Shown here piece after piece: positions 6,660 through 41,308 of a DNA stretch of 64,000 bases. A model generated the notes under the pieces. The model saw only the letters and a list, made by a program, of their open reading frames with translations. It searched no databases and was not told the DNA's origin. How positions within the stretch are numbered: position 1 is the stretch's first letter; the number at the start of each line of letters is the position of its first letter. The DNA lies in contig CAVPLM010000005.1 in the NCBI GenBank assembly GCA_963706025.1, forward strand, positions 608,001 through 672,000. Direction: 5' to 3'. Position numbers and translations under genes: made by a program. The stretch comes from an uncultured Actinomycetes bacterium. GTDB lineage: Bacteria; Actinomycetota; Thermoleophilia; RBG-16-64-13.

Positions 6660-8115
6660 TCAGCAGGCGTTTCCGCCCCTGGCCAGCTCGAGATAGCGCT
6701 CGGCGACCTTTCCCCAGGAAGCAAACCGTAGGCGGCAGAGATCGTGGAGTTGGTCACGAAAGGCGAAACCAGCCGTGGGGTAGCGACCGAGAACGTGTAT
6801 CGCCAGGCGCGAGAGCTCCTCGCTGAGGCATTGACCGGGAGCGAGGGCCCTCAGCAGCGGGTCCGCCAAGGCGTCCGCCACCACATCGACTATAGGGGCG
6901 AGGCCGGAGTGGAAGCTTGCGAGGGGCAGAGCGCCGGCGGAAAGCGCCTCGATGGTGACGAGCCCGACTGCCTCTGGGAATACGGACGGGGCCAGCGAGA
7001 CATCCGCGGCAGCAAAGAGGCGACCGAGCTGGGCTGACGTTGAGATGGCCGAGAAAGTGCAATGGCAGAGGGCCGACGTGGGGCACCGCGGCGGGAACCA
7101 ACTCACCGAACTCTGGTGGGGCACGGAGCTCATCTGACTTAGCGGCAAGCGCACGCGCGGCCGCCTCATCCCCCTCGCCGAGCAGTCTCGCCAGCTCCGT
7201 CAAGGGCGCCTGAGCCGGGCCCTCCCCCGCGATCAGCAACCGCACCGAAGGATAGTGCGCAAGCACACGAGGCAGGCAAGAGACGGCGTATTGGACGCCT
7301 TTCGTCCACATCAGCCGACCGGCGTAGACGATGATGCGGTCCTCGGGGCGCAATTCAAGCCCGTCGGGCAGAGCGACCTCGCGGGTTAGAGCCTCGATCG
7401 CGGCCATTCGATCGGAGGCAGGGGCAAAGGTGCGCGCATCGACCCCCGGCGGGATCGCAAACGTCTTGCTCGCCATAGGCAAGCGGTGCTCCGCCGCCCA
7501 GGTGACGATCTCGGCAGCGCCTGGTTCGGAGACGGCCACCACTGCGGCAGCGGCCTCGAGGCCCTCCAAGGCGAAGGGGGCAAGCCGCCGATCACGCTTG
7601 ACGCTGAAGTTGAGCTCCGACCCATGCACGGTCACGACGTAGGGAGTGTCCGCGGCGAGCGCCTGCTTGACGAGGTACGGGGCCATCATCGCGTGGTTCG
7701 CGAGGACGAGGTCAGGGGGCCAGGTCGCGAATATGGTCCGTAGGGCGGAAGCATTGTCGAGTACGTACGCTTCGATCCACTCGGTGGGGCTGTCTTGAAA
7801 CGCCCTTACCTGCTCGGCCTCGAACCCCGGGAAAGGACCGTCGACGTACACGAGCAGACGCCGAAGCTGCGGCCGAACGAGCCGGCAGCGCCCCTCGTAG
7901 AGCGGTGGTCGTACATCACCGAGGGGCATCGGCTCGGCGTTGTTCTCATCGACGACGTAGACGGCATCGACGAAGTCGTACAGTTCGGGACTGCGCTCCT
8001 GGCAGACGAGAGTGACGTCATGACCCCGCCGGACCAGCTCACGCACCACCTCGCGCGCGTATATCCCGCTCCCTGAGTCATGAAGGTAGTACCCATGAAC
8101 AACGGCGACGCGCAC
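6660..8115 (-). CDS. Glycosyltransferase family 4, frameshift near 7040
   Basis: GSGIY...GHDV, YAGRLMWTKG in ORF 6754..8115; PSVFPEAVGLVTIEALSAG in ORF 6660..7169. Confidence 0.88.
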
Positions 8116-18039: not shown

Positions 18040-18552
18040 CTACCGGCCCGCGTAGCGTGGTCGAGCGCAGATCTCTGCGAGAATGCCGTCGAGCAGGCGA
18101 AGAGCATCGTCTTCCCGCATGCGCTTGGCGCACATCACCTCGGAAGCAAGGATGCGCTTCACTCTGCCGTACATCTGCTTCTCGCCGGTAGAGAGCCCCT
18201 GTTCGTGCTGCCTGAGGGCGAGATTGCGGAGAACGTCGGCGATCTCCAGGACATCTCCGCTCTTGATCTTCTCCCTATTGTGCTTGATCCGGCGATTCCA
18301 GTCCTTGGGCATCTTGGTGGGATCGTCACGAAGGACCCCGAGCACCTCGTCGACCATCGGCTCTGGGATGACCGCCCGGATGCCGGCATTCTCCACTCCA
18401 TCCACCGGCACCATCACAGTCATGTCGTTGTGTAGTATCCGGATGTTGTAGAAGCGGCGCGGCAGCCCCTGGAAATCCTGCTCCACTATGCCCAGTATCT
18501 GACCGGCCCCGTGCTGAGGGTAGACGATGGTCTCGCCCACGCGGAACATCAC
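18040..18552 (-). CDS. carD: CarD family transcriptional regulator
   Basis: FRVGETIVYPQHGAG, conserved WNRR, LSTGEK. Confidence 0.95.
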   Translation of the reverse strand: MMFRVGETIVYPQHGAGQILGIVEQDFQGLPRRFYNIRILHNDMTVMVPVDGVENAGIRAVIPEPMVDEVLGVLRDDPTKMPKDWNRRIKHNREKIKSGDVLEIADVLRNLALRQHEQGLSTGEKQMYGRVKRILASEVMCAKRMREDDALRLLDGILAEICARPRYAGR

Positions 18553-19631
18553 CCGTACCGCTCCAGGAGGTTGACTTCGCGCAGGCGCACCAGACCCTCG
18601 CGGATATCGTTGGCCCGGGCCATCCCCACTCCGTCGATGGCGGCCAGTTCCTCTACCGTCGCGTCGAGCAGGCCCCGCACATTGCCGAACCGGGAGGCCA
18701 GCGCTTCGATGACCGTATCGTTCAAGCGGGGGATCTTCCGCAGCATGCGGTAGCCACGGGGGCTCATGTGCTTCTCCAGGGTCAGGACGTTGGGGCCGTA
18801 GCCCAGGATCTCGCCCACTCGAGCCAGGGAGAGCAACTCCTCGGAGCGAAGGGCCCCCAGGGCCTCGCGAGCTTCCTTCAGCCGCGCGGGGGAGGGATCC
18901 GGCAGATAGTCGGCCAGGATCGCGGCCCGGTCCTCGCGCACGTCCACCATCAGTTCCTCCAGCTGAAGTTGCACCAGTCGGCCTTCGTCACCCAACTCGA
19001 TGATGTAGTGCTCGATCTCCTGGACGATCACCAGCACCATCTCCGAACGCTGCAGCACGGATAGAACGTCGTGGAGGGTCACTGCATCCTCGAACTCAAG
19101 GGCCGACAGCGACGTGGACACCTGGTTGAGCCGGGCCTTGAACTTCTCCAGGGTCTGCAGCGCCTGGTCGGCCTTATCCAGGATCACGCGGATCGGGTCC
19201 ATTATGTAGCGGATGCCGGCCAGATAGATGGTCACCACGTCGCGGGCCGCCGAGATGGAGATGGCAAGAGCGTCGATCTGCTTGGCGACCCGCTCGGCAG
19301 TGCGATGGCGGGTACCGGTCTCTTGGGACTCGATGCGGGCGTCGGGCATCAACTGCACGTTGGCATGGATGATGTGCCTGCCGGTACGGTCGAGAAGGAT
19401 GGCCCCGTCCATCTTGGCAAGCTCGTAGAGGATCATGGGCTTGAGTTCGACGTCGATGTCGATCCCCCCGGAGATCATGGGTCTGATCTCCTGCTCGTCG
19501 GCGAACACGAGCAACGCTCCCGTGCGGGCCCGAACGACGTTGTCGATCGCCTGCCGGATCATCGTTCCCGGGGCGACCATCTGCAGGGCTTCGACCAATC
19601 GTGCCTCTAGGGCCGGGGGACGCTTACCCAC
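18549..19631 (-). CDS. disA: DNA integrity scanning diadenylate cyclase DisA
   Basis: ELAKMDGA, ETGTRHRTAER and a C-terminal HhH motif IDGVG. Confidence 0.97.
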   Translation of the reverse strand: MGKRPPALEARLVEALQMVAPGTMIRQAIDNVVRARTGALLVFADEQEIRPMISGGIDIDVELKPMILYELAKMDGAILLDRTGRHIIHANVQLMPDARIESQETGTRHRTAERVAKQIDALAISISAARDVVTIYLAGIRYIMDPIRVILDKADQALQTLEKFKARLNQVSTSLSALEFEDAVTLHDVLSVLQRSEMVLVIVQEIEHYIIELGDEGRLVQLQLEELMVDVREDRAAILADYLPDPSPARLKEAREALGALRSEELLSLARVGEILGYGPNVLTLEKHMSPRGYRMLRKIPRLNDTVIEALASRFGNVRGLLDATVEELAAIDGVGMARANDIREGLVRLREVNLLERYG

Positions 19632-21045
19632 GGGTGCTCCTTGCTGCCGTGTTCTTGACCACCTGATTCACCGCTTGTCCGATATCCGTCACCGCCACCA
19701 ACTCCACTCCGGGAGCCATCCCTCCGGCTCCCAAAAGCTCTTCCGCGTTTCGGCCGGGGATCAGGATGCGAGGAAACCCGCGCCGCGTGAGCTCCTGGAC
19801 ACGCTTCTCGCCTTGCAGGACGTAGCGTATCTTCCCGGTGAGACTCACCTCCCCGAAGGCGGCCACGCCTTCAGCGCCGCCGCCGTCCCGCCAGGCCGAA
19901 GCCACCGCCAGAGCCACCGCCAGATCGGCGGCGGGATCCTCGAGCACCAGTCCTCCTGCAACGTTAACAAAAATGTCGCATTTGAGCAGCGGCAGTCGAG
20001 CCCGGCGGTTAAGAACTGCCACGATCATGGCCAGACGGTTGCGGTCGACGCCTCTGGCCACCCGCTGGGGCATCGCCAGGTTGCTGGGGGTCACCAGCGC
20101 CTGCACCTCGGCCAGAAGGCAGCGAGTGCCTTCAAGGACCGGCACCACCGCCGATCCGGAGCGCAGGTCGCCGTCTTCAAGGAAGATCGACGAAGGGTCG
20201 GGGACTTCCACCAGCCCTTGCTCGGCCATCTGGAACACGCCCACCTCGTTCGTGGAACCGAAGCGGTTCTTGACCGCCCGTAGGATGCGGAACGGCTGCG
20301 TCCTCTCCCCTTCGAACGACAGCACCGCGTCGACCATGTGCTCGAGCACCCGCGGGCCGGCCAGTTCTCCCTCCTTGGTCACGTGGCCGACCAGAACCAG
20401 GGCCATCCCACCGGCCTTGGCCACCCGGAGAAGCTGAGCGGTGGAATCACGGATCTGCGCGATCGAACCCGGAGTGGACCCCACCTCCGACGACCACAGG
20501 GTCTGCACCGAGTCGACCACGCACACCTCCGGCCTCAGGTGCTCGAGAGCAGCGACCACCGACTCGGTCTGGGTCTCGGTGAGCAGGCGAAGGTCGCCCA
20601 TGCCCGGCTGGGTCCCTCCCAGCCTGGTGCTGCGCAGCTTGACCTGAGCCGGCGACTCCTCCCCCGAGATCAACAGCGTGGAGACGCCGCGTGCCTCCAT
20701 GCTGAGCAGGGCCTGAAGGAGAAGGGTGCTCTTGCCCACGCCCGGTTCGCCCCCCACCAGCACCACCGACCCGGCCACCAGCCCGCCGCCCAACACCCGG
20801 TTGAACTCGCCCAGACCGGTATCGATGCGGGCCTGGGCGCCGAGATCGACGGCGGACAGGTGGAGGGGCGCGGGCGCCGCCACGGGCGGGCCCGCGCTGC
20901 GCGATCCGAGGCCACGCGGCACTTTCGGGGGCACCACTTCCTCGACAATGGTGTTCCAGCTGCCGCATCCCGGGCACCGTCCCAACCATCCCGGGGAGGC
21001 ATAGCCACACTCCCGGCAGATGAAGGAGCTCTTGCCGCGCGGCAT
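19624..21045 (-). CDS. radA: DNA repair protein RadA/Sms
   Basis: CRECG...CPGC zinc finger, GEPGVGKST and KNRFG; start MPRGK at 21045. Confidence 0.97.
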   Translation of the reverse strand: MPRGKSSFICRECGYASPGWLGRCPGCGSWNTIVEEVVPPKVPRGLGSRSAGPPVAAPAPLHLSAVDLGAQARIDTGLGEFNRVLGGGLVAGSVVLVGGEPGVGKSTLLLQALLSMEARGVSTLLISGEESPAQVKLRSTRLGGTQPGMGDLRLLTETQTESVVAALEHLRPEVCVVDSVQTLWSSEVGSTPGSIAQIRDSTAQLLRVAKAGGMALVLVGHVTKEGELAGPRVLEHMVDAVLSFEGERTQPFRILRAVKNRFGSTNEVGVFQMAEQGLVEVPDPSSIFLEDGDLRSGSAVVPVLEGTRCLLAEVQALVTPSNLAMPQRVARGVDRNRLAMIVAVLNRRARLPLLKCDIFVNVAGGLVLEDPAADLAVALAVASAWRDGGGAEGVAAFGEVSLTGKIRYVLQGEKRVQELTRRGFPRILIPGRNAEELLGAGGMAPGVELVAVTDIGQAVNQVVKNTAARSTRG

Positions 21046-21058
21046 GGGCCGCTCCGTT

Positions 21059-23549
21059 CTACTTGGTCTCGTCGGCCACGAGGATGTCCGGCGCCCCGAG
21101 GATGACCTCCAAGATGACCAGATGGTCGTCCTCACGATCCAAGAGCACGGTGCTGCCCCGAGGGAACCGGCCCGAAAGCACTTCTTCGGCCAGCAGGTCT
21201 TCCACGTGACGCTGGATGGCGCGCCGGAGCGGGCGCGCGCCCATGGTGGGGTCGAAGCCCACGTTAACGAGGAACTCCTTGGCGTCCAGGGTGAGGGCAA
21301 GGCCTATCTCGCGGTCTTTGAGTTGCTCTTCCACCCGGGCCATCATCAGTTCGACGATGTCGGTGATCTCCGGACGGGAGAGTTTGCGGAACACGATGAC
21401 TTCGTCCACCCGGTTCAGGAACTCGGGCCGGAACATCTTCTTCAGCTCCGCGGTGACCCGGTTCTTCATCTCTTCATACTCCAGGCCGCCCTCTTCCACC
21501 GGCTCGCCGAAGCCCAGAGTCTGACCTTTTGAGATGGTGGAGGCACCGATGTTCGACGTCATGATGATGATGGCGTTGCGGAAGTCCACTGTGCGCCCTT
21601 GGGCGTCGGTGAGCCTGCCGTCCTCCAGTATCTGCAGGAGGATGTTGAACACGTCCGGATGAGCCTTCTCGATCTCGTCGAGCAACACCACCGAGTAGGG
21701 GCGGCGGCGCACCGATTCGGTGAGTTGGCCGCCTTCGTCGTAGCCCACGTAGCCGGGCGGCGAACCTACCAACCGGCTGACGGCGTGCTTCTCCATGAAC
21801 TCCGACATGTCGACCTGGATGAGCGCGGCCTCGTCCCCGAAGAGGAACTCCGCCAGGGTGCGGGCCAACTCCGTCTTGCCCACGCCCGACGGGCCCAGGA
21901 AGATGAAGGAACCGGCGGGACGGTGAGGATCTTTGAGGCCGGCGCGCGAACGGCGGATGGCCCGAGAGACGGCCTTGACCGGCTCGTCCTGGCCGACCAC
22001 CCGCTTGTGCAGGGCTTCCTCCATCCGCAGCAACCGGTGCCGTCTCGGCCTCAGTGAGCTTCGTCACCGGGATGCCGGTCCACATGGCGGTGACTTCCGC
22101 GATCTCGTCCTCTCCGATGGAGATCTCGGCGGCTTCGTCGGACTCGCGCCACTTGTCTTCCAGTTCCTTGCGCTGGTTCAGCAGCTTTCGCTCCCGATCC
22201 CGCAACGCGGCCGCCTTCTCGAAATCTTGGATCTCGATGGCCGCTTCTTTGTCCCGGCGTACCTCGAGGATGGCATCCTCCACCTCGCGCATGTCGGGCG
22301 AGGCGCACATGTTCTGGATACGCTTGCGAGAGGCCGCCTCGTCGATCAGGTCGATGGCTTTGTCGGGCAGGAAGCGGTCGCTGATATAGCGGTCGGCCAG
22401 GTAGGCGGCGGCTTCGAGAGCCTCGTCGGTGATGCGCACCTTATGGTGCGCCTCATAGCGCTCGCGGAGTCCAGACAGGATCTGCCTAGTCTCGAGGACA
22501 CTCGGCTCTTTGACCAGGATCTTCTGGAAACGTCGCTCAAGGGCGGCATCCTTGGCCAAGTGCTTTCGATACTCATCCAGAGTGGTGGCCCCGATGGTCT
22601 GCAACTCTCCCCGCGCCAGGGCCGGCTTGAGAATGGAAGCCGCATCGATGGCACCTTCGGCGGCGCCCGCCCCCACCAGATTGTGGATCTCATCGACGAA
22701 GAGGATGATGTCGCCGCGCTCGCCGATCTCTTTCATGACCTTCTTGAGGCGCTCTTCGAACTCGCCCCGATACTTCGACCCGGCCACCAGGGCACCCAGG
22801 TCGAGGGTGTAGATCTGCTTGTCTTTGAGCAGGCTGGGCACATCGTTCTTGGCGATACGCTGGGCCAATCCCTCTACCACCGCCGTCTTGCCGACACCGG
22901 GCTCGCCCACCAGCACGGGGTTGTTCTTCGTGCGCCGCGAGAGGATCTGCATGACGCGCTCGATCTCCGTCTCCCGTCCGATCACCGGGTCGAGCTTGTC
23001 CTCCTCGGCGTACTTGGTGAGATTGCGCCCGAACTGATCGAGGACTTTGGACGTCTTGCGGTCCTTGCTCTCGCCAGTGGCGCCCGCCGTGGTCCCCCGG
23101 CTCTGCCGGCGGGTCGGACCGGCCAGCACCCGCATGACCTCCTGGCGTACCCGGTCGGCGTCGACCTCCAAGTCGTTCAAGATCCGCGCAGCCACCCCTT
23201 CGCTCTCCCGTACCAATCCCAACAGGATATGCTCGGTACCGATGTAGTTGTGCCCCAGGGACAGAGCCTCGCGCAACGCCCATTCCAGCACCTTCTTGGC
23301 CCGAGGTGTAAACGGGATCTGGCCCTGCGACTCGTTGTCGCCCTCCCCTACGATGCGGACCACCTCTCCCCGCACCTCTTCGAGGCTGACTTCCAAGGCG
23401 CCCAGCACTCGGGCGGCGACTCCGTCGGCCTCCCGCAGGAGACCGAGGAGCAGATGCTCCGTCCCGATGTAGTTGTGGCGAAGGACCCGAGCCTCTTCTT
23501 GGGCTAAGACGACCACCTGTCGGGCTCGCTCTGTGAACCTTTCGAACAT
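21059..23549 (-). CDS. clpC: ATP-dependent Clp protease ATPase subunit ClpC, frameshift near 22040
   Basis: [21 protein letters not shown], two Clp-N repeats, [11 protein letters not shown] coil and second Walker A GPSGVGKT in the next frame. Confidence 0.97.
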
Positions 23550-23564
23550 TACTTCCCTCTCCGA

Positions 23565-24581
23565 CTAGCGCGCGCAGGCGCCTGCGAATATCTCGCGCAG
23601 CAGCCGCGCCCGGGTCTGATCTATCTCGGGGCTTTCCAAACAGCCCGTTTTCGCATCCAAATGGTCCATCACGATGTGCGCCGGCTGCAGCCTCGTCATC
23701 AGATCGAAGACGGACTCCGCCGGCAGACCGGGGACTTCCACCAGCCCTTGCTCGAGCCCCACCTGGGCGGCCGAAAGCACATTGACCGCCTCCGAGAACG
23801 ACATGGACCACCCGTGCTGGCCCACTCCCAGAGAGCGCCCGATGTGGTCGCGAGCCTGGATGGGGTTCTCCCGCAGAAGCATCTTCCTCACCGATCGTTC
23901 CTTCTCCGCGATGCCGTGGGAAATGACCTCGATTTGCTGGAGTATCTCCGCTTCGGGTTTACCCTGCCGTCCCAGGTTGGAAACCTGGACGACGCCTCCT
24001 GCTCCGCCCCAGAGAGGTGTCAAAGCCAGGCCGTCGGTCACAAGTTCGAGGGCGATGCCTCCCAAACGACCCGTGAGCATGAGAGCGGGAACCTGCAGGG
24101 TAGCGTAGACCCGCATCCCGCTGCCCGCCTGACTCGGCCTGCTGGTCAGATAGCCCCAACTAGCATCGAAGGCGTAGGCCAGGACCGTCTCCAAGCGGTC
24201 GTCGAGCGCAGCCAGGAGCGACCAGAGATCGTCCAGATGGTCGCCGGCCCGGAAGCCGAGCAAACGTACGTGGTCGACCCCATTGATCTCGAGGGAAGCC
24301 TGATCCTCGCCGTACACCGCGAAACCCCTGCCCTCCCCGGCACCATCGGCGAAAGTCGGGGTCATGAGTCCCTGTTCCACCAAACGGATAGTCTCGACGC
24401 CGGAGAGATCATCGAGATCGTAGACCCGCCAGGGTCGCTCCCAAACGCCTTCGGTCAGAGTATCGACGATCTCTTGGCGCAGCTCCTCCAGCACCTCACC
24501 CTGTTCGACATGGGAGAAGCGCCTCCGCGCCTCGTTGCGGGAAAGCCCCAGACCCGAGGCTGCAAGCGTGGAGGCGCTCAC
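23565..24581 (-). CDS. mcsB: McsB-like ATP:guanido phosphotransferase homologue with degenerate catalytic motifs
   Basis: Lies between mcsA and clpC with a GTGA overlap; scaffold motifs YAFD..WGYLTS, PAL..TG, QVSN and LQPAH...D..RA.LLRE are recognisable. Confidence 0.85.
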   Translation of the reverse strand: MSASTLAASGLGLSRNEARRRFSHVEQGEVLEELRQEIVDTLTEGVWERPWRVYDLDDLSGVETIRLVEQGLMTPTFADGAGEGRGFAVYGEDQASLEINGVDHVRLLGFRAGDHLDDLWSLLAALDDRLETVLAYAFDASWGYLTSRPSQAGSGMRVYATLQVPALMLTGRLGGIALELVTDGLALTPLWGGAGGVVQVSNLGRQGKPEAEILQQIEVISHGIAEKERSVRKMLLRENPIQARDHIGRSLGVGQHGWSMSFSEAVNVLSAAQVGLEQGLVEVPGLPAESVFDLMTRLQPAHIVMDHLDAKTGCLESPEIDQTRARLLREIFAGACAR

Positions 24582-25171
24582 GACGCACCGCTTTCCAGCT
24601 TCTGGCCCAGTTCGGCCAGCCGGTCGCGGACACCCGCCGCTTCTTCGAAGCGCTCGCATTCCACAAGCTCGCGCAGCATGCGCTCGAGGCGCATGATCTC
24701 GTGACGCAGGGAGTCGTTCTCCGGCACCCGACGAGGCACCTTGCCCAGGTGCTCCGTCGGCTGTACATCACCGTCCAGTGCAGTCTGCAGGTCGTCGGCG
24801 AAAACCCGGTAGCAGTTGGGACAACCCACCATCGCCGATTCCTCGAGATCGGTAAGAGTGGTGCCACATACACCACAAAACCGGTCCTCCTTCGGGGGTG
24901 CGGGAGTCTCGGCTGCCTCGCTCTCGATATGCTCCTGGGTCAGACGACGAAATACCGACGGTACCGCCAGCACCAGAGCCAGGCCGTCCGTCTGTTCGGC
25001 GATGCTCTGGGCGCAGTCGGGACAGAGATGAGTGTGGGTGACGGCCCCATCCACCACCCTGAGCAGGTGCATGGTCGCCTTTTCTTCACCGCACAGCTCA
25101 CAGTCTGCTGAGCCGTCAAGGTCAAGATTCCAGTCGGGTGATTCCTCTGCAAACACCCGGTCCACCTCCAA
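24578..25171 (-). CDS. mcsA: McsA (CxxC motifs plus UVR domain)
   Basis: CELC, HLCPDCA, CGVC, GCPNCY, HLGKVP and ERFEEAAGVRD. Confidence 0.93.
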   Translation of the reverse strand: MEVDRVFAEESPDWNLDLDGSADCELCGEEKATMHLLRVVDGAVTHTHLCPDCAQSIAEQTDGLALVLAVPSVFRRLTQEHIESEAAETPAPPKEDRFCGVCGTTLTDLEESAMVGCPNCYRVFADDLQTALDGDVQPTEHLGKVPRRVPENDSLRHEIMRLERMLRELVECERFEEAAGVRDRLAELGQKLESGAS

Positions 25172-25434
25172 CGGTAGGCCTGCCTGGCCCGCCGGCCACC
25201 GGCACGAAAGTAGGAGAAAACAGCGCTCACCGTGCCGGGAATGGTCGAGAAACTACTGCCCGAAGTGTAGCATAATGGGCTTTCGGCCTCGGGCCTGGAC
25301 CTCCTTCCCACAGTCCTTCACATCCGCTAAGACTGGCGGAAGCGTGCCGCCGTTCCAAGCCCTCAGCAGAGGCGTATCCAGGCCCTCAGCGCGCCGGGAA
25401 TGCAGCACCCCCGGTCGTTCGGCGCGCAGGTCGA

Positions 25435-26964
25435 TCAGCGCTCAGGTCGCAGCTGGGGGAAGAGGATAACGTCTCGGATCGATTCCATGCCCAGCAGCAT
25501 CATGGCCAGACGGTCGATACCGATACCCAGTCCGCCCGCCGGCGGCATGCCGTACTCCAGAGCCCGAAGGAAATCCTCATCGACCACGTGAGCCTCCTCG
25601 TCGCCGGCCTCCTTGTTGCGCTCTTGCTGCTCGAACCGGCGCCGCTGGTCCATGGGGTCGTTGAGCTCCGAGAAAGCATTACCCATCTCCTTGCCGCCGA
25701 TGATGGGCTGGAACCGCTCCACCAGCTGCGGATCGTCCGGCCGGCACTTGGCCAGGGGGCTGAGTTCCAACGGGTAGTCGATGGCGAAGGTGGGTTGGAT
25801 GAGCGCCGGCCACACGACATGCTTGAGCGCTTTGTCGACCAGGGTGGCGAAGGTCTCCCGGTTATCAACCTCGATCCTTCGCTCGTGGAGAACTCTATTG
25901 GCAGCCTGAGGGTCGGCGCGGATGGCGGCCAGCGAGAGACCCACATGCTCCCGAAGGAGGGAATCTATGGTGCACCTGGGCCACGGGGGCTTCAGCTCGA
26001 TGCTGTTCTCCCCCACCACGACCTGGGTGGTGCCGATCACTTCCACGGCCAGAGCCGGGATCATGTTCTCAACCAACTCCATGATCGCGTTGTAGTCCAC
26101 ATAGGCCCAGTAAAGCTCCATCATGGTGAATTCGGGATTGTGGACCAGCGAGATACCCTCGTTCCGGAAATTCTTCCCGATCTCAAAGATGCGATCGAAC
26201 CCCCCCACCAGCAGCCGCTTGAGATAGAGCTCGGGCGCTATGCGCAGGTAGAGGTCGGTGTCGAGCGCGTTGTGGTGGGTCACGAACGGTCGGGCCAGGG
26301 CTCCACCGGGCAACGGCTGAAGGATGGGCGTCTCCACCTCTACGAACCCCTGGGCTTCCAGATAGCGGCGCATGGCCGACACCAGCTTGCCCCGAGCCTG
26401 CAGCTGCCACGCGACCGCCGGGTTGGCGACAAGGTCGACATAGCGCTGACGGTAGCGGGTCTCACGGTCCTGCAGGCCATGCCACTTCTCAGGGAGCGGG
26501 CGCAGGGACTTGGTGAGGAGAGTCCAGTCCTTGGCGAAGACCGTCAGCTCCCCTCGCCGGCTCCGAAACACGTGCCCCTCGCAGCCGATGATGTCGCCGA
26601 CGTCGATGTCGGTTAGCCTTGAGAAAGAACCTTCACCCAGAGTATCGACGTTGGCGTAAACCTGCAGATCGTCCCAACCGTCACGCAGGGTGACGAATAC
26701 TGCCTTGCCGTGCTCTCGGCGCGCCATCACACGGCCGGCCACCCGGTAATGCGCACCCTCGTCCTTCGCGCCGGGTTCGAGGCCGGTGTGCGCCTTGGTG
26801 ACCTCCCCGAGGTGAGTCCGCGGATCGAAGCAGCGCGCGTAGGGCTCTATGCCGTCGTGGCGCAGCCGTTCGGCCTTGTTCAGACGGTCTCGCTCCCAGT
26901 CGGGCAGTTCCGCCGCGAGGCCGTCGCCTTCGCCGTTCTCAGCGGATCCGCCGGACGCGCTCAT
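25435..26964 (-). CDS. lysS: Lysine--tRNA ligase (class II)
   Basis: LRPLPEKWHGL, YLRIAPELYLK, FRNEG, HNPEFT and GIGIDRL. Confidence 0.98.
   Translation of the reverse strand: MSASGGSAENGEGDGLAAELPDWERDRLNKAERLRHDGIEPYARCFDPRTHLGEVTKAHTGLEPGAKDEGAHYRVAGRVMARREHGKAVFVTLRDGWDDLQVYANVDTLGEGSFSRLTDIDVGDIIGCEGHVFRSRRGELTVFAKDWTLLTKSLRPLPEKWHGLQDRETRYRQRYVDLVANPAVAWQLQARGKLVSAMRRYLEAQGFVEVETPILQPLPGGALARPFVTHHNALDTDLYLRIAPELYLKRLLVGGFDRIFEIGKNFRNEGISLVHNPEFTMMELYWAYVDYNAIMELVENMIPALAVEVIGTTQVVVGENSIELKPPWPRCTIDSLLREHVGLSLAAIRADPQAANRVLHERRIEVDNRETFATLVDKALKHVVWPALIQPTFAIDYPLELSPLAKCRPDDPQLVERFQPIIGGKEMGNAFSELNDPMDQRRRFEQQERNKEAGDEEAHVVDEDFLRALEYGMPPAGGLGIGIDRLAMMLLGMESIRDVILFPQLRPER

Positions 26965-32061: not shown

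Positions 32062-32065
<4 letters not shown>
30383..32065 (-). CDS. nadB: L-aspartate oxidase
   Basis: GGGIAGL, AQGGIAA, QFHPT, TEALRGEG, HGANRLASNSL and ESRGVH; GTG start overlaps the nadA stop. Confidence 0.96.
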
Positions 32066-32976
<911 letters not shown>

Positions 32977-33519
32977 GGGTGAACTCCTGCTCCTTCCCGG
33001 AATCGCCTCGTTTGGACCGGCCGGGAGACGCCTGACCACCTGGTCTCGCACGAGGGTCAGAGCTTTCACCACCGTCCTCCCACTCGGAAGGACCAACTCC
33101 GGGGCAAGCTCGGCTAGGGGCTCGAGCACGAAGCGACGCTCCTCCATGCGCGGATGGGGGATCTCCAGATCGGCCTCCTGCAACGAGACCCCATGGTACC
33201 AAAGGATGTCGATATCGACGGTCCGAGGACCCCATCTGACCACACGCTCCCTGCCCAACTCGCTCTCGATCAGCCGAAGGGCGGAGAGAAGATCGCGGGG
33301 GGACAACGTCGTCTGTAGGCCGACCACCTGGTTGAGAAAGTCGCCCTGATCGGGGCCACCCACGGGGGCGGTCACGTAGAGAGCCGATTCTGCCGACACG
33401 CTGGTGCCGGGCAGGGCGGCCAGACGACCCCGGGCCAGCCGAAGCAAGGTCTCCCTGTCTCCCTGGTTGGAGCCCAGCCCCAGATAGACGCGGGCTGGGG
33501 CGCCCCCCGCGGCGCCCAG
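32977..33519 (-). CDS. folK: 2-amino-4-hydroxy-6-hydroxymethyldihydropteridine diphosphokinase; no canonical start and no stop before nadA
   Basis: VYLGLGSNQGDR, FLNQV, RWGPRTVDIDIL and IPHPRMEERRFVLEPL; in frame with both folB and nadA. Confidence 0.92.
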
Positions 33520-39822: not shown

Positions 39823-41119
39823 CTGACCAACGCGGTTGGCATATCTGGTACGCACGGACGGCTTCTGATCGTCCACGGACACGAGTTGTCCTCGTACAAC
39901 TTCAGCGATGAACACCCGCTGCAGCCGACCCGGTATGAGCTCACGATGTCCTTGCTCTCCAGTCTGGGATGGCTTGACAGAAGCGATCTCGACGTCGAAG
40001 CTCCGCGGCCCGCCCTCACGGAGGAGTTGCTCACCGTGCACTCGTACCCCTACGTGCAGGCGGTCGCTCACGCGCAGGCGATAGCCCAAGGGATGACCCA
40101 GCCCATCGATCTGAGCCTCTACGGGCTGGGGACAGCGGACAACCCGCTTTTCCCCGCCATTCATGATGCTTCTGCCCTGTACACAGGCGCGACGATACAG
40201 GCCATGAACGCCCTCATGGAGGGGCGAGCGGTCCATGCTTATGCTCCCGCCGGCGGCCAGCACCACGCCATGAGGGCTCGAGCGTCGGGGTTCTGCGTCT
40301 ACAACGATTGTGCGGTCGCCATCACGGCGGCGGTGGCGGCCGGCTACCGGGTCGCGTATGTCGATCTCGACGCCCATCACGGGGACGGGGTACAGGCCGC
40401 CTTCTACAGCGATCCCGCGCGTTCTCACGATCTCGATCCACGAATCTGGACGCTATCTATTCCCTGGGACCGGGGGCGTGGACGAGATGGGCGCCGGCGA
40501 AGGGGCAGGCGCCTCGATCAACGTACCCCTGCCGCCCATGGCGGGCGACGACGCCATCCTTCTCGCGATGGAACGTATAGTCGTCCCAGCAGTGCGCTCT
40601 TTCGCTCCCGATATCATGGTGGCGCAGACGGGGTGTGACACCCATCATAGGGATCCTCTTACCCACCTCACCGCCACCCTCCCTCTCTACCCCAGACTGG
40701 CCGAGCACCTCCACGATCTGGCCCACGAGTGCTGTTCCGGGCGCTGGCTCATCGTCGGCGGGGGCGGATACGACCCGGTCGACGTGACACCACGCGCTTG
40801 GACCGCGTTCTTCGGCACGGTCCTGGGCCAGGAGACCGCCGACGTCGAGTTGCCGCAAGATTGGATCCGGGCCTCCAGGCAACTCGGGGGCGACCCCCCA
40901 AGCCGCCTCCTTGATGATCCCGGTCCGGTCTGCGATCCCCTGCCCGCCGGAACCATCACCCAACTGCTCACGGATATCGAAGACACGGCCCTGGCCGAGC
41001 TCCGGCGGCAGCACGGACGCGATCGACCACGTCGGCGGGCGTCTCTTCGTCACCACCTTGCACTCCACCGCCGGCTTTGCTTATATTGGCACGCCCGAAC
41101 ATCCCAAAGGAGGAGAACC
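39823..41119 (+). CDS. acuC: AcuC/histone-deacetylase family protein, frameshift near 40418; probable CTG start; true end uncertain
   Basis: HPLQPTR, GGQHHA, SGFCVYND, DLDAHHGDG, then SIHE...FPGTG, GCDTHHRDPL and GGGGY in the next frame. Confidence 0.88.
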
Positions 41120-41308
41120 ATGGGTGTCCCCAAAGTCGATCCCGATCTTTGCACCGGCTGCGGTATCTGTGAGGATATCTGCCCCGATGTGTTCGAGATC
41201 GGCGATGACGGCCTGTCTCACGTGATCGACCCGAACGCATGCGAAGACTCAAGCTGCTGCGAAGAAGCGGTCGACGAGTGCCCGGAGGGCGCCATCAACA
41301 TCGAGTGA
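41120..41308 (+). CDS. Single-cluster ferredoxin
   Basis: CTGCGIC...CP and CPEGAI; strong AAAGGAGGAG RBS. Confidence 0.92.
   Translation: MGVPKVDPDLCTGCGICEDICPDVFEIGDDGLSHVIDPNACEDSSCCEEAVDECPEGAINIE

Follow-up and report, generated by a model that had tools for sequence, protein, structure and literature searches.

A McsB homologue with replaced catalytic residues between mcsA and clpC in uncultured Actinomycetota

To our knowledge, no protein-arginine kinase other than McsB is established, and the adaptor role of McsB has been hard to separate from its kinase role. In earlier work, the order of the Bacillus subtilis ctsR operon is given as including mcsA-mcsB-clpC-radA-disA (PMC8957991), the catalytic site of McsB as C167 plus the NEEDH motif (PMC11046695), and the phosphoarginine (pArg) receptor residues of B. 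subtilis McsB as R337, R341, S285 and D338 (PMC8370763). For arginine kinase, one source names Glu225, Glu314 and Cys271 as essential, with the phosphoryl group held by Arg126, Arg229, Arg309, Arg330 and Asn274 (PMC11075012). In the ClpC unfoldase, E32 and E106 are key pArg determinants, and MecA binds the ClpC N-domain and M-domain and activates ClpC (both from PMC12583610). For mycobacteria, PMC9604228 and PMC13345244 report that neither a McsB homologue nor an arginine kinase is known, although pArg and ClpC1 pArg pockets exist. The gene analysed here, a mcsB-like open reading frame (ORF) on the minus strand of a 64,000-nucleotide stretch (the window) of contig CAVPLM010000005.1 from an uncultured Actinomycetes bacterium, encodes a homologue of McsB in which the catalytic residues are replaced.

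The window protein resembles the solved Bacillota McsBs (6tv6/8wtb, 6fh1-3, 8gqd) in its predicted two-domain fold (template-modelling (TM) score 0.81-0.88), in ~26-30% identity over the full length, in the place of its gene (after mcsA and before clpC, with radA and disA next in line), and in a neighbouring McsA with two zinc fingers. It differs from them in having lost the catalytic Cys, both Glu, the Asn, three phosphate-binding Arg and the residues of the lid loop, in bearing Ile and Phe in place of R337 and S285 of the pArg receptor, and in lacking ~20 N-terminal residues; neither a ctsR gene nor a CtsR operator was found (in the window, and for the gene also in 48 related loci), and the score lies under all NCBIfam McsB equivalog cut-offs. 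With the arginine and creatine kinases (PF00217) the protein shares a homologous catalytic-domain fold (E 1e-6 to 1e-12, TM 0.55-0.61) and the equivalents of D226, H227 and R280, whereas the equivalents of Glu225, Glu314 and Cys271 are absent, as is, in common with all McsB, the N-terminal specificity domain. Mycobacterium and other Actinomycetes with ClpC1 systems belong to the same phylum and have conserved pArg-pocket residues in the ClpC N-domain (PMC9604228); unlike mycobacteria, the clade described here keeps mcsA and a degenerate mcsB. Hanks-type bacterial pseudokinases offer a parallel from a different superfamily, with an enzyme fold under selection after loss of catalytic residues. 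A 2025 review of bacterial pseudokinases carries McsB in its reference list only (PMC12599244), and no published description of a degenerate McsB was found in full-text literature searches, whose coverage leaves out most subscription papers.

Catalytic residues and predicted fold

The gene is the following feature.

mcsB-like gene, 23565..24581, minus strand: 338 amino acids (aa); phosphagen-kinase-like domain and McsB dimerisation domain, with catalytic residues replaced.

It is held by an uninterrupted reading frame (23565-24659, minus strand) and starts at a GTG at 24581 that overlaps the TGA of mcsA as GTGA; the original prediction, made from the sequence alone, had proposed a pseudokinase McsB encoded by a 338-aa ORF coupled to mcsA. 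The 338-aa form from this GTG is favoured because relatives are 338-345 aa long. The protein matched Pfam PF00217 with an E-value of 7e-28, and its best solved relatives were the McsBs of B. subtilis and G. stearothermophilus (8wtb, 6tv6, 6fh1; E ~1e-28 to 1e-26; phmmer against 8wtb/6tv6, E 7e-28 over residues 35-356). Residue-by-residue alignment to solved McsB showed that every motif change listed in the original prediction is real: SRIRLARN is replaced by SGLGLSRN, VEKHLISP by VEQGLMTP, NEEDHIR by NGVDHVR, TSCPTNVGTGLR by TSRPSQAGSGMR, and RGIYGEGSEAVGN by TPLWG----GAGG, where a 4-residue deletion takes out the second catalytic Glu.

Residues were mapped to arginine kinase 1m15 by ungapped arithmetic, with query 121-243 on chain 218-342. 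Gly101 and Val102 fall on Glu224 and Glu225, Arg148 on Cys271, Gln151 on Asn274, Arg106 on Arg229 and Arg157 on Arg280, and the loop bearing Glu314 is deleted. Two of the five phosphate-binding arginines (R106, R157) are kept in the window protein; the catalytic Cys is replaced by Arg, and the combination of Cys167 and NEEDH that marks McsB is absent. In the C-terminal domain, which had been described as retained, the outline is kept and the pArg receptor only by half: R337 aligns to Ile320 and S285 to Phe262, both hydrophobic replacements being fixed in the family, while D338 and R341 have their counterparts in D321 and R324, both of them invariant.

An AlphaFold2 model of the mcsB-like protein, built from a 116-row alignment, had a predicted local distance difference test score (pLDDT) of 92.9 and a predicted TM score (pTM) of 0.90. 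In a Foldseek search of the PDB with this model, B. subtilis McsB 6tv6 was the top match (TM 0.88 over 340 columns), followed by G. stearothermophilus McsB (0.84-0.86; 6fh1/6fh3, 0.85-0.86), S. aureus McsB (0.81) and arginine and creatine kinases (0.55-0.61), and the McsB dimerisation domain lay within the structural matches to McsB. The two-domain McsB fold is therefore intact in the predicted model. The protein fell under all 5 NCBIfam McsB equivalog cut-offs (NF002194, NF053707, NF002191-3), with 169.1 bits against a cut-off of 385, 142.9 against 500, 125.7 against 381, 103.1 against 471 and 90.8 against 679; a canonical control, P0197, scored 412 bits and cleared the 385 cut-off. Relatives are annotated as 'protein arginine kinase' in JGI records and as 'hypothetical protein' in NCBI records. 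By fold, sequence and position, the mcsB-like protein is a homologue of McsB. Judged from its residues, the arginine-kinase chemistry has very probably been lost, and with the catalytic machinery lost while the fold is conserved, the protein most likely does not phosphorylate arginine.

Distribution, origin and selection within the clade

A word-indexed search returned 217 relatives, 120 of them listed, all with 62-100% identity to the window protein; the 119 listed relatives of 300-420 aa were aligned, and one 266-aa fragment was left out. Throughout these 119, the first NEED Glu is Gly (position 101), the RG arginine of RGxYGE is absent, and a shortened LWxGxGG loop carries a deletion by which the lid Glu is lost; neither Arg of the N-terminal pair (positions 10 and 12) is present in any of them, and the catalytic Cys is present in one. 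When 1.84 billion representatives were scanned exhaustively without a profile, 2930 matched at E<=0.001, with only a handful of clusters above 45% identity, then a gap, and beyond the gap canonical McsBs (up to ~145 bits, 26-35% identity); among 130 full-length representatives, EE was found in 117, the Cys in 107 and the Arg pair in 117-120. A genome scan yielded 80 loci, 48 with Actinomycetota-type titles and 32 others, the clade records being titled Thermoleophilia, Gaiellales, Actinomycetes or Actinomycetota. All 40 Actinomycetota loci with an unbroken mcsB carry the degenerate form, so that the losses are clade-wide, and all 32 non-actinobacterial loci (Bacillota, Synergistota, Verrucomicrobiota, PVC, Omnitrophota) are canonical. 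The gene is broken in the other 8 of the 48 (L033, L034, L037, L044-L047, L077); in the five of these that were inspected (L037 and L044-L047), neighbouring genes are likewise broken.

A tree of 73 rows was computed with the 8 broken-mcsB loci left out (quick search; midpoint root for drawing only), and placed the 41 degenerate rows in one clade (Shimodaira-Hasegawa-like approximate likelihood ratio test (SH-aLRT) 100), with a stem of 1.71 changes per column and short branches within. The Nei-Gojobori ratio of nonsynonymous to synonymous substitution rates (dN/dS) of the mcsB-like gene was 0.097, 0.121, 0.119, 0.147 and 0.173 for five pairs, which indicates purifying selection; for comparison, lysS gave 0.062-0.118, disA 0.073-0.248 and mcsA 0.141-0.236. 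As an enzyme homologue that lacks the catalytic residues and is under purifying selection, the protein has the sequence attributes of a pseudoenzyme.

Indel-type breaks in the window (in clpC, an ARPP-1 domain gene and a glycosyltransferase gene, described below) and the broken mcsB of 8 of the 48 loci could be taken as signs that the gene is decaying or that the motif changes are an artefact of error-prone assembly. This is highly improbable. The changes are substitutions shared by all 119 aligned independent relatives, which come from several sources, so that indel errors do not explain them, as the original prediction had argued; 40 of the 48 loci have an unbroken reading frame, and in L037 and L044-L047 the breaks extend to neighbouring genes; the dN/dS lies at 0.10-0.17 and the structure model is confident. 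Simple decay with intact motifs in close relatives, set out beforehand as an outcome that counts against a pseudokinase, is excluded by the clade-wide losses, the single origin on the tree, the purifying selection, the intact predicted fold and the placement beside mcsA and clpC in 48 of 48 loci.

Site classes were compared between 122 family and 106 canonical McsB sequences. The same residue is conserved in both groups at 38 positions, 8 positions are conserved in both but differ between them in residue or by a gap (E to G101 and G to P189 among them), and 42 positions reach 95% conservation or more in the family while staying below 50% in canonical McsB. The equivalents of R10, R12, E102, R106, C148, N151 and R188 are invariant in canonical McsB and variable in the family, as expected of a lifted catalytic constraint; this is not how a newly fixed catalytic set would appear. 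In the region of the active site, R15, N16, E69, D103, H104, R157, Q199, S201 and N202 are invariant in the family; a new loop rich in Gly has become fixed, as have several Trp.

These site classes bear on a further explanation, in which the pocket was rebuilt (Gly101, Pro189, Trp191, the GxGG loop and the RGFAVYG strand) for another ligand or reaction, which would make the protein a remodelled enzyme or a sensor of some ligand. The 8 positions conserved yet different between the groups, the 42 family-specific positions and the retention of R157, D103, H104, E69 and a QxSN motif speak for it, and a long stem followed by tight conservation is compatible with a change of function no less than with a loss. 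It is unlikely nevertheless: the guanidinium and gamma-phosphate positions are variable in the family and have not been re-fixed (R/Y/H/S/Q/N at the Cys271 equivalent, A/T/S/V at the Arg309 equivalent, V/D/E/T/L/S at the Glu225 equivalent), the His284 equivalent is only 72% conserved (Gln in the window), and the pocket motifs hold no new invariant acid/base set.

NGxDH and the loop deletion recur in more distant relatives (P0298, P0299 and P0300-P0307; 34-48% identity), two of which, P0298 and P0299, form a sister lineage and still have the N-terminal R-x-R pair, a combination that hints at stepwise loss. A search with P0130 as query gave 13 matches. Nine further proteins of ~30% identity (P0215, P0224, P0225, P0247, P0258, P0267, P0270, P0241, P0139) are without NEED, Cys or Arg motifs (for example NGADH or NGVDALE), and McsB catalytic residues seem to have been lost in further lineages too. 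Two contigs of one metagenome-assembled genome (MAG) record, L015 and L027, each carry a full lysS-mcsA-mcsB-clpC set, with mcsB-like proteins 63% and 59% identical to the window protein, respectively; the bin probably mixes two organisms.

Gene neighbourhood and the mcsA leader

The genes around the mcsB-like gene, assigned from Pfam matches and ORFs, run on the minus strand in the order dus - greA - lysS - mcsA - mcsB-like - clpC - radA - disA - carD, with 15 nucleotides (nt) between the mcsB-like stop and the clpC start in the window.

mcsA, 24578..25156, minus strand: 192 aa from GTG; two zinc fingers, HxGKxP loop, UVR/coiled coil.
clpC, 21059..23549, minus strand: two ORFs, 21474-23549 and 21059-22033, split by one extra G.
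lysS, 25435..26964, minus strand: assigned by Pfam; occupies the slot held by ctsR in Bacillota.
radA and disA, 18549..21040, minus strand: downstream of clpC, in the order of the B. subtilis ctsR operon.

Across all 48 Actinomycetota loci, mcsA lies directly upstream of the mcsB-like gene (gap 0-153 nt, median ~12) and clpC directly downstream (gap 17-193 nt, median 19, and 17-33 nt in 43 of the 48). In 45 of the 48 loci, lysS is upstream of mcsA; six loci (L007, L016, L017, L044, L015, L046) have 1.2-5.4 kb of unrelated genes between lysS and mcsA (nitrilase-type hydrolase, beta-lactamase-fold, Kelch-repeat, radical SAM and others), none of which is CtsR. The wider order presumably parallels that of B. 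subtilis as well, with tilS, hpt, ftsH, fol genes, coaX, dus and lysS on one side and, farther on, PIN-TRAM, ispD, ispF, gltX, cysS, a SpoU methylase, yacP and a sigma factor; the Mycobacterium neighbourhood, lysS ... clpC ... radA-disA-carD, we take to be alike. The shared mcsA-mcsB-clpC-radA-disA order and its wider surroundings support vertical inheritance, and, judged by position, the mcsB-like gene is the orthologue of mcsB in this large clade of uncultured Actinomycetota.

McsA carries four CxxC pairs (C24/27, C50/53, C98-99/101-102, C117/120) and a UVR domain (Pfam, E 2.3e-5), as the original prediction had stated. The eight Cys are invariant in 41 McsA sequences, and the HxGKxP loop (H141, G143, K144, P146) is conserved with canonical McsA, so that two Cys4 zinc fingers, a McsB-binding loop and a C-terminal coiled coil/UVR region are all present; the protein scored below the NCBIfam McsA cut-off (94 bits against 210). 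A start at GTG 25156 (192 aa) is more likely than at TTG 25171 (197 aa), because a GGAGG lies 8 nt upstream of the GTG and conservation of the DNA starts there. The N-terminus of McsA bears a motif, (M)FAEESPDWNLD, that is conserved, specific to the clade and absent from canonical McsA. This acidic/aromatic motif, which covers residues 1-16 when counted from GTG 25156 (window 25110-25156, minus strand), might serve as a degron or as a docking peptide.

The clpC gene has a 1-nt insertion (an extra G) at 22040/22041 relative to four of four relatives aligned (L001, L002, L003, L006), in which clpC reads through in one frame. The break is taken to reflect faulty assembly or a lesion of very recent date, and probably the former, because both halves are under strong purifying selection (dN/dS 0.02-0.06; 95-98% identity to L001 and L003). 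At least two other genes, both on the minus strand, are split in the window, namely an ARPP-1 domain gene (1127-2208; split at ~1660-1680, with profile positions 2-142 and 135-297 in successive ORFs) and a family 4 glycosyltransferase (GT4) gene (6660-8115; split at ~7100-7170), which alongside clpC suggests an indel-prone assembly. An ORF at 32062-33447 (minus strand) combines an HPPK (folK) domain with a complete NadA domain, either as a real fusion or as a frame/stop artefact, and at 40310-41308 (plus strand) the C-terminal half of a histone-deacetylase domain (profile 165-296 of 298) is followed by a ferredoxin domain, possibly in a broken gene. The ClpC N-domain is 84-99% identical within the clade and keeps both GTEH glutamates (the E32 and E106 equivalents) together with the T7, R9 and K85 equivalents.

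A CtsR profile, built from 7 Pfam-confirmed CtsRs, picked up 21 loci, all from Bacillota/Synergistota, and had no match in the six frames of the 64-kb window, the 48 Actinomycetota loci or the Verrucomicrobiota/PVC loci; the earlier claim that lysS and not ctsR lies upstream of mcsA is therefore upheld. Nor was any CtsR-operator-like repeat found in the window at up to 3 mismatches to the consensus applied, in keeping with the heptad repeat reported missing from 25172-25434 in the original prediction. Several loci from Verrucomicrobiota, PVC and Omnitrophota (L048-L050, L053-L056, L058, L059) have canonical McsB with mcsA and clpC and are without an adjacent ctsR; a class IV aminotransferase lies upstream in the four checked with Pfam (L049, L053, L055, L058). 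Among 70 window ORFs scanned with Pfam, none had a low-molecular-weight phosphatase-type domain (as in YwlE), a result that holds for the window only.

Upstream of mcsA, a conserved extended -10-like element and a leader of ~100 nt with a hairpin occur among loci L001-L043; in the window they lie as follows.

Extended -10-like element TATGCTACACT, 25264..25274, minus strand: upstream of mcsA.
mcsA leader hairpin CCGGCACGG ... TCGTGCCGG, 25199..25238, minus strand: 9 pairs, 25238-25230 with 25207-25199.

Of the 37 clade loci searched, 36 carry T[AG]TGNTA[AC]A[AC]T upstream of mcsA, and in 34 of these 36 it lies 106-136 nt before the mcsA GTG; the other two, L019 (87 nt) and L026 (7 nt), had been paired with the wrong GTG and do not enter the leader alignment. 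A simple sigma-70/terminator scan of 20900-25600 returned no promoters and one terminator-like site, on the wrong strand. The leader hairpin has support from covariation: 88.5% of cells were paired (29-54% in slid controls), and 31 double-change cells were counted against 11.3 in shuffles (0 of 500 reaching the observed value); since the hairpin was read from the same sequences in which the changes were counted, the figures are somewhat biased towards it. An RNAalifold consensus of 35 leaders was weak (4 pairs). Searches with Rfam gave one tRNA and no leader family in the whole window at the gathering score, and chance-level matches only at E up to 5 in 25100-25450. The -10-like element and leader hairpin may form a cis-regulator that stands in for CtsR control.

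The same region bears on whether the mcsB-like gene has to do with ClpC at all. A non-catalytic role unrelated to ClpC (for example as a stress or redox sensor with McsA, or as a regulator of another target), with the clpC adjacency merely inherited, would fit the ancient order of the tilS-to-sigma-factor region, in which synteny could be inertia, and B. subtilis McsB is described as also affecting ClpXP substrates (PMC8957991). Such a role is improbable, given the tight and conserved spacing to clpC and the single promoter-like element with its leader before mcsA, none being seen before clpC, an arrangement that argues for co-transcription and for selection on the unit as a whole.

Proposed role with McsA and ClpC

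In the best explanation, one burst of change on the clade stem would have removed the ATP:guanidino phosphotransfer machinery, that is, both guanidinium-holding Glu, the Cys, the Asn274-equivalent, three phosphate-binding Arg, the lid loop and half of the pArg receptor pocket, while the two-domain McsB fold would have been kept and the protein conserved ever since. The product would be a non-catalytic subunit, or pseudoenzyme, working together with McsA, to which it appears translationally coupled; McsA, with both zinc fingers and the McsB-binding loop, would pair with the McsB-like protein, and the pair would assist the ClpC unfoldase, within the same operon-level module, by selecting substrates or by regulating its activity. 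A pseudoenzyme that acts non-catalytically with McsA in the ClpC module is, on balance, the probable reading. Binding of the McsB-like protein to McsA and to ClpC is suggested by these features, and a role as ClpC adaptor or scaffold, as in the original prediction, may be read from the gene order. If this explanation is right, the protein would act on ClpC without chemistry, in the manner of MecA-type adaptors; it has no sequence or fold relationship to MecA, and its putative link to ClpC is here drawn from gene order. A complex prediction for the McsB-like protein, McsA and the ClpC N-domain scored 0.00 with the N-domain as partner, which speaks neither for nor against binding.

Several points weigh against this reading. 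Gene order alone is no proof of physical partnership, and clpC is frameshifted in the window as assembled, although the clpC break has no bearing on mcsB, in which the changes are substitutions shared across the clade. The invariant active-site-region residues (R15, N16, E69, D103, H104, R157, Q199, S201, N202), together with the Gly-rich loop and the Trp, could mean that a ligand is still bound or another reaction carried out. In B. subtilis, the adaptor role of McsB reportedly depends on its kinase activity (Kirstein et al. 2007). The gene is known from MAGs or metagenomes only, with no cultured carrier among the sources. The ClpC N-domain keeps its pArg-pocket residues, and the module may still deal with pArg, which with both pocket glutamates retained could possibly come from another enzyme; the pArg-independent substrate delivery put forward in the original prediction therefore goes beyond the data.

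A more specific proposal, in which McsA and a kinase-dead McsB form a phosphorylation-independent ClpC targeting or activating device, with the former substrate groove or the FAEESPDW N-terminus of McsA engaging ClpC or its clients directly, is tentative and rather doubtful at present.

A clade known only from MAG and metagenome records has preserved the ancestral mcsA-mcsB-clpC unit, in which McsB looks kinase-dead. It offers a natural separation-of-function variant for what McsA and McsB do for ClpC without phosphorylation, and dates a loss of McsB chemistry in Actinomycetota; its genes are open to synthesis and to standard ClpC/ClpP assays. If the phosphorylation-independent device is real, the adaptor function of McsB would be naturally separable from its kinase function, and Actinomycetota would have lost McsB-made pArg before losing the gene, in which case mycobacterial pArg would come from an unrelated kinase.

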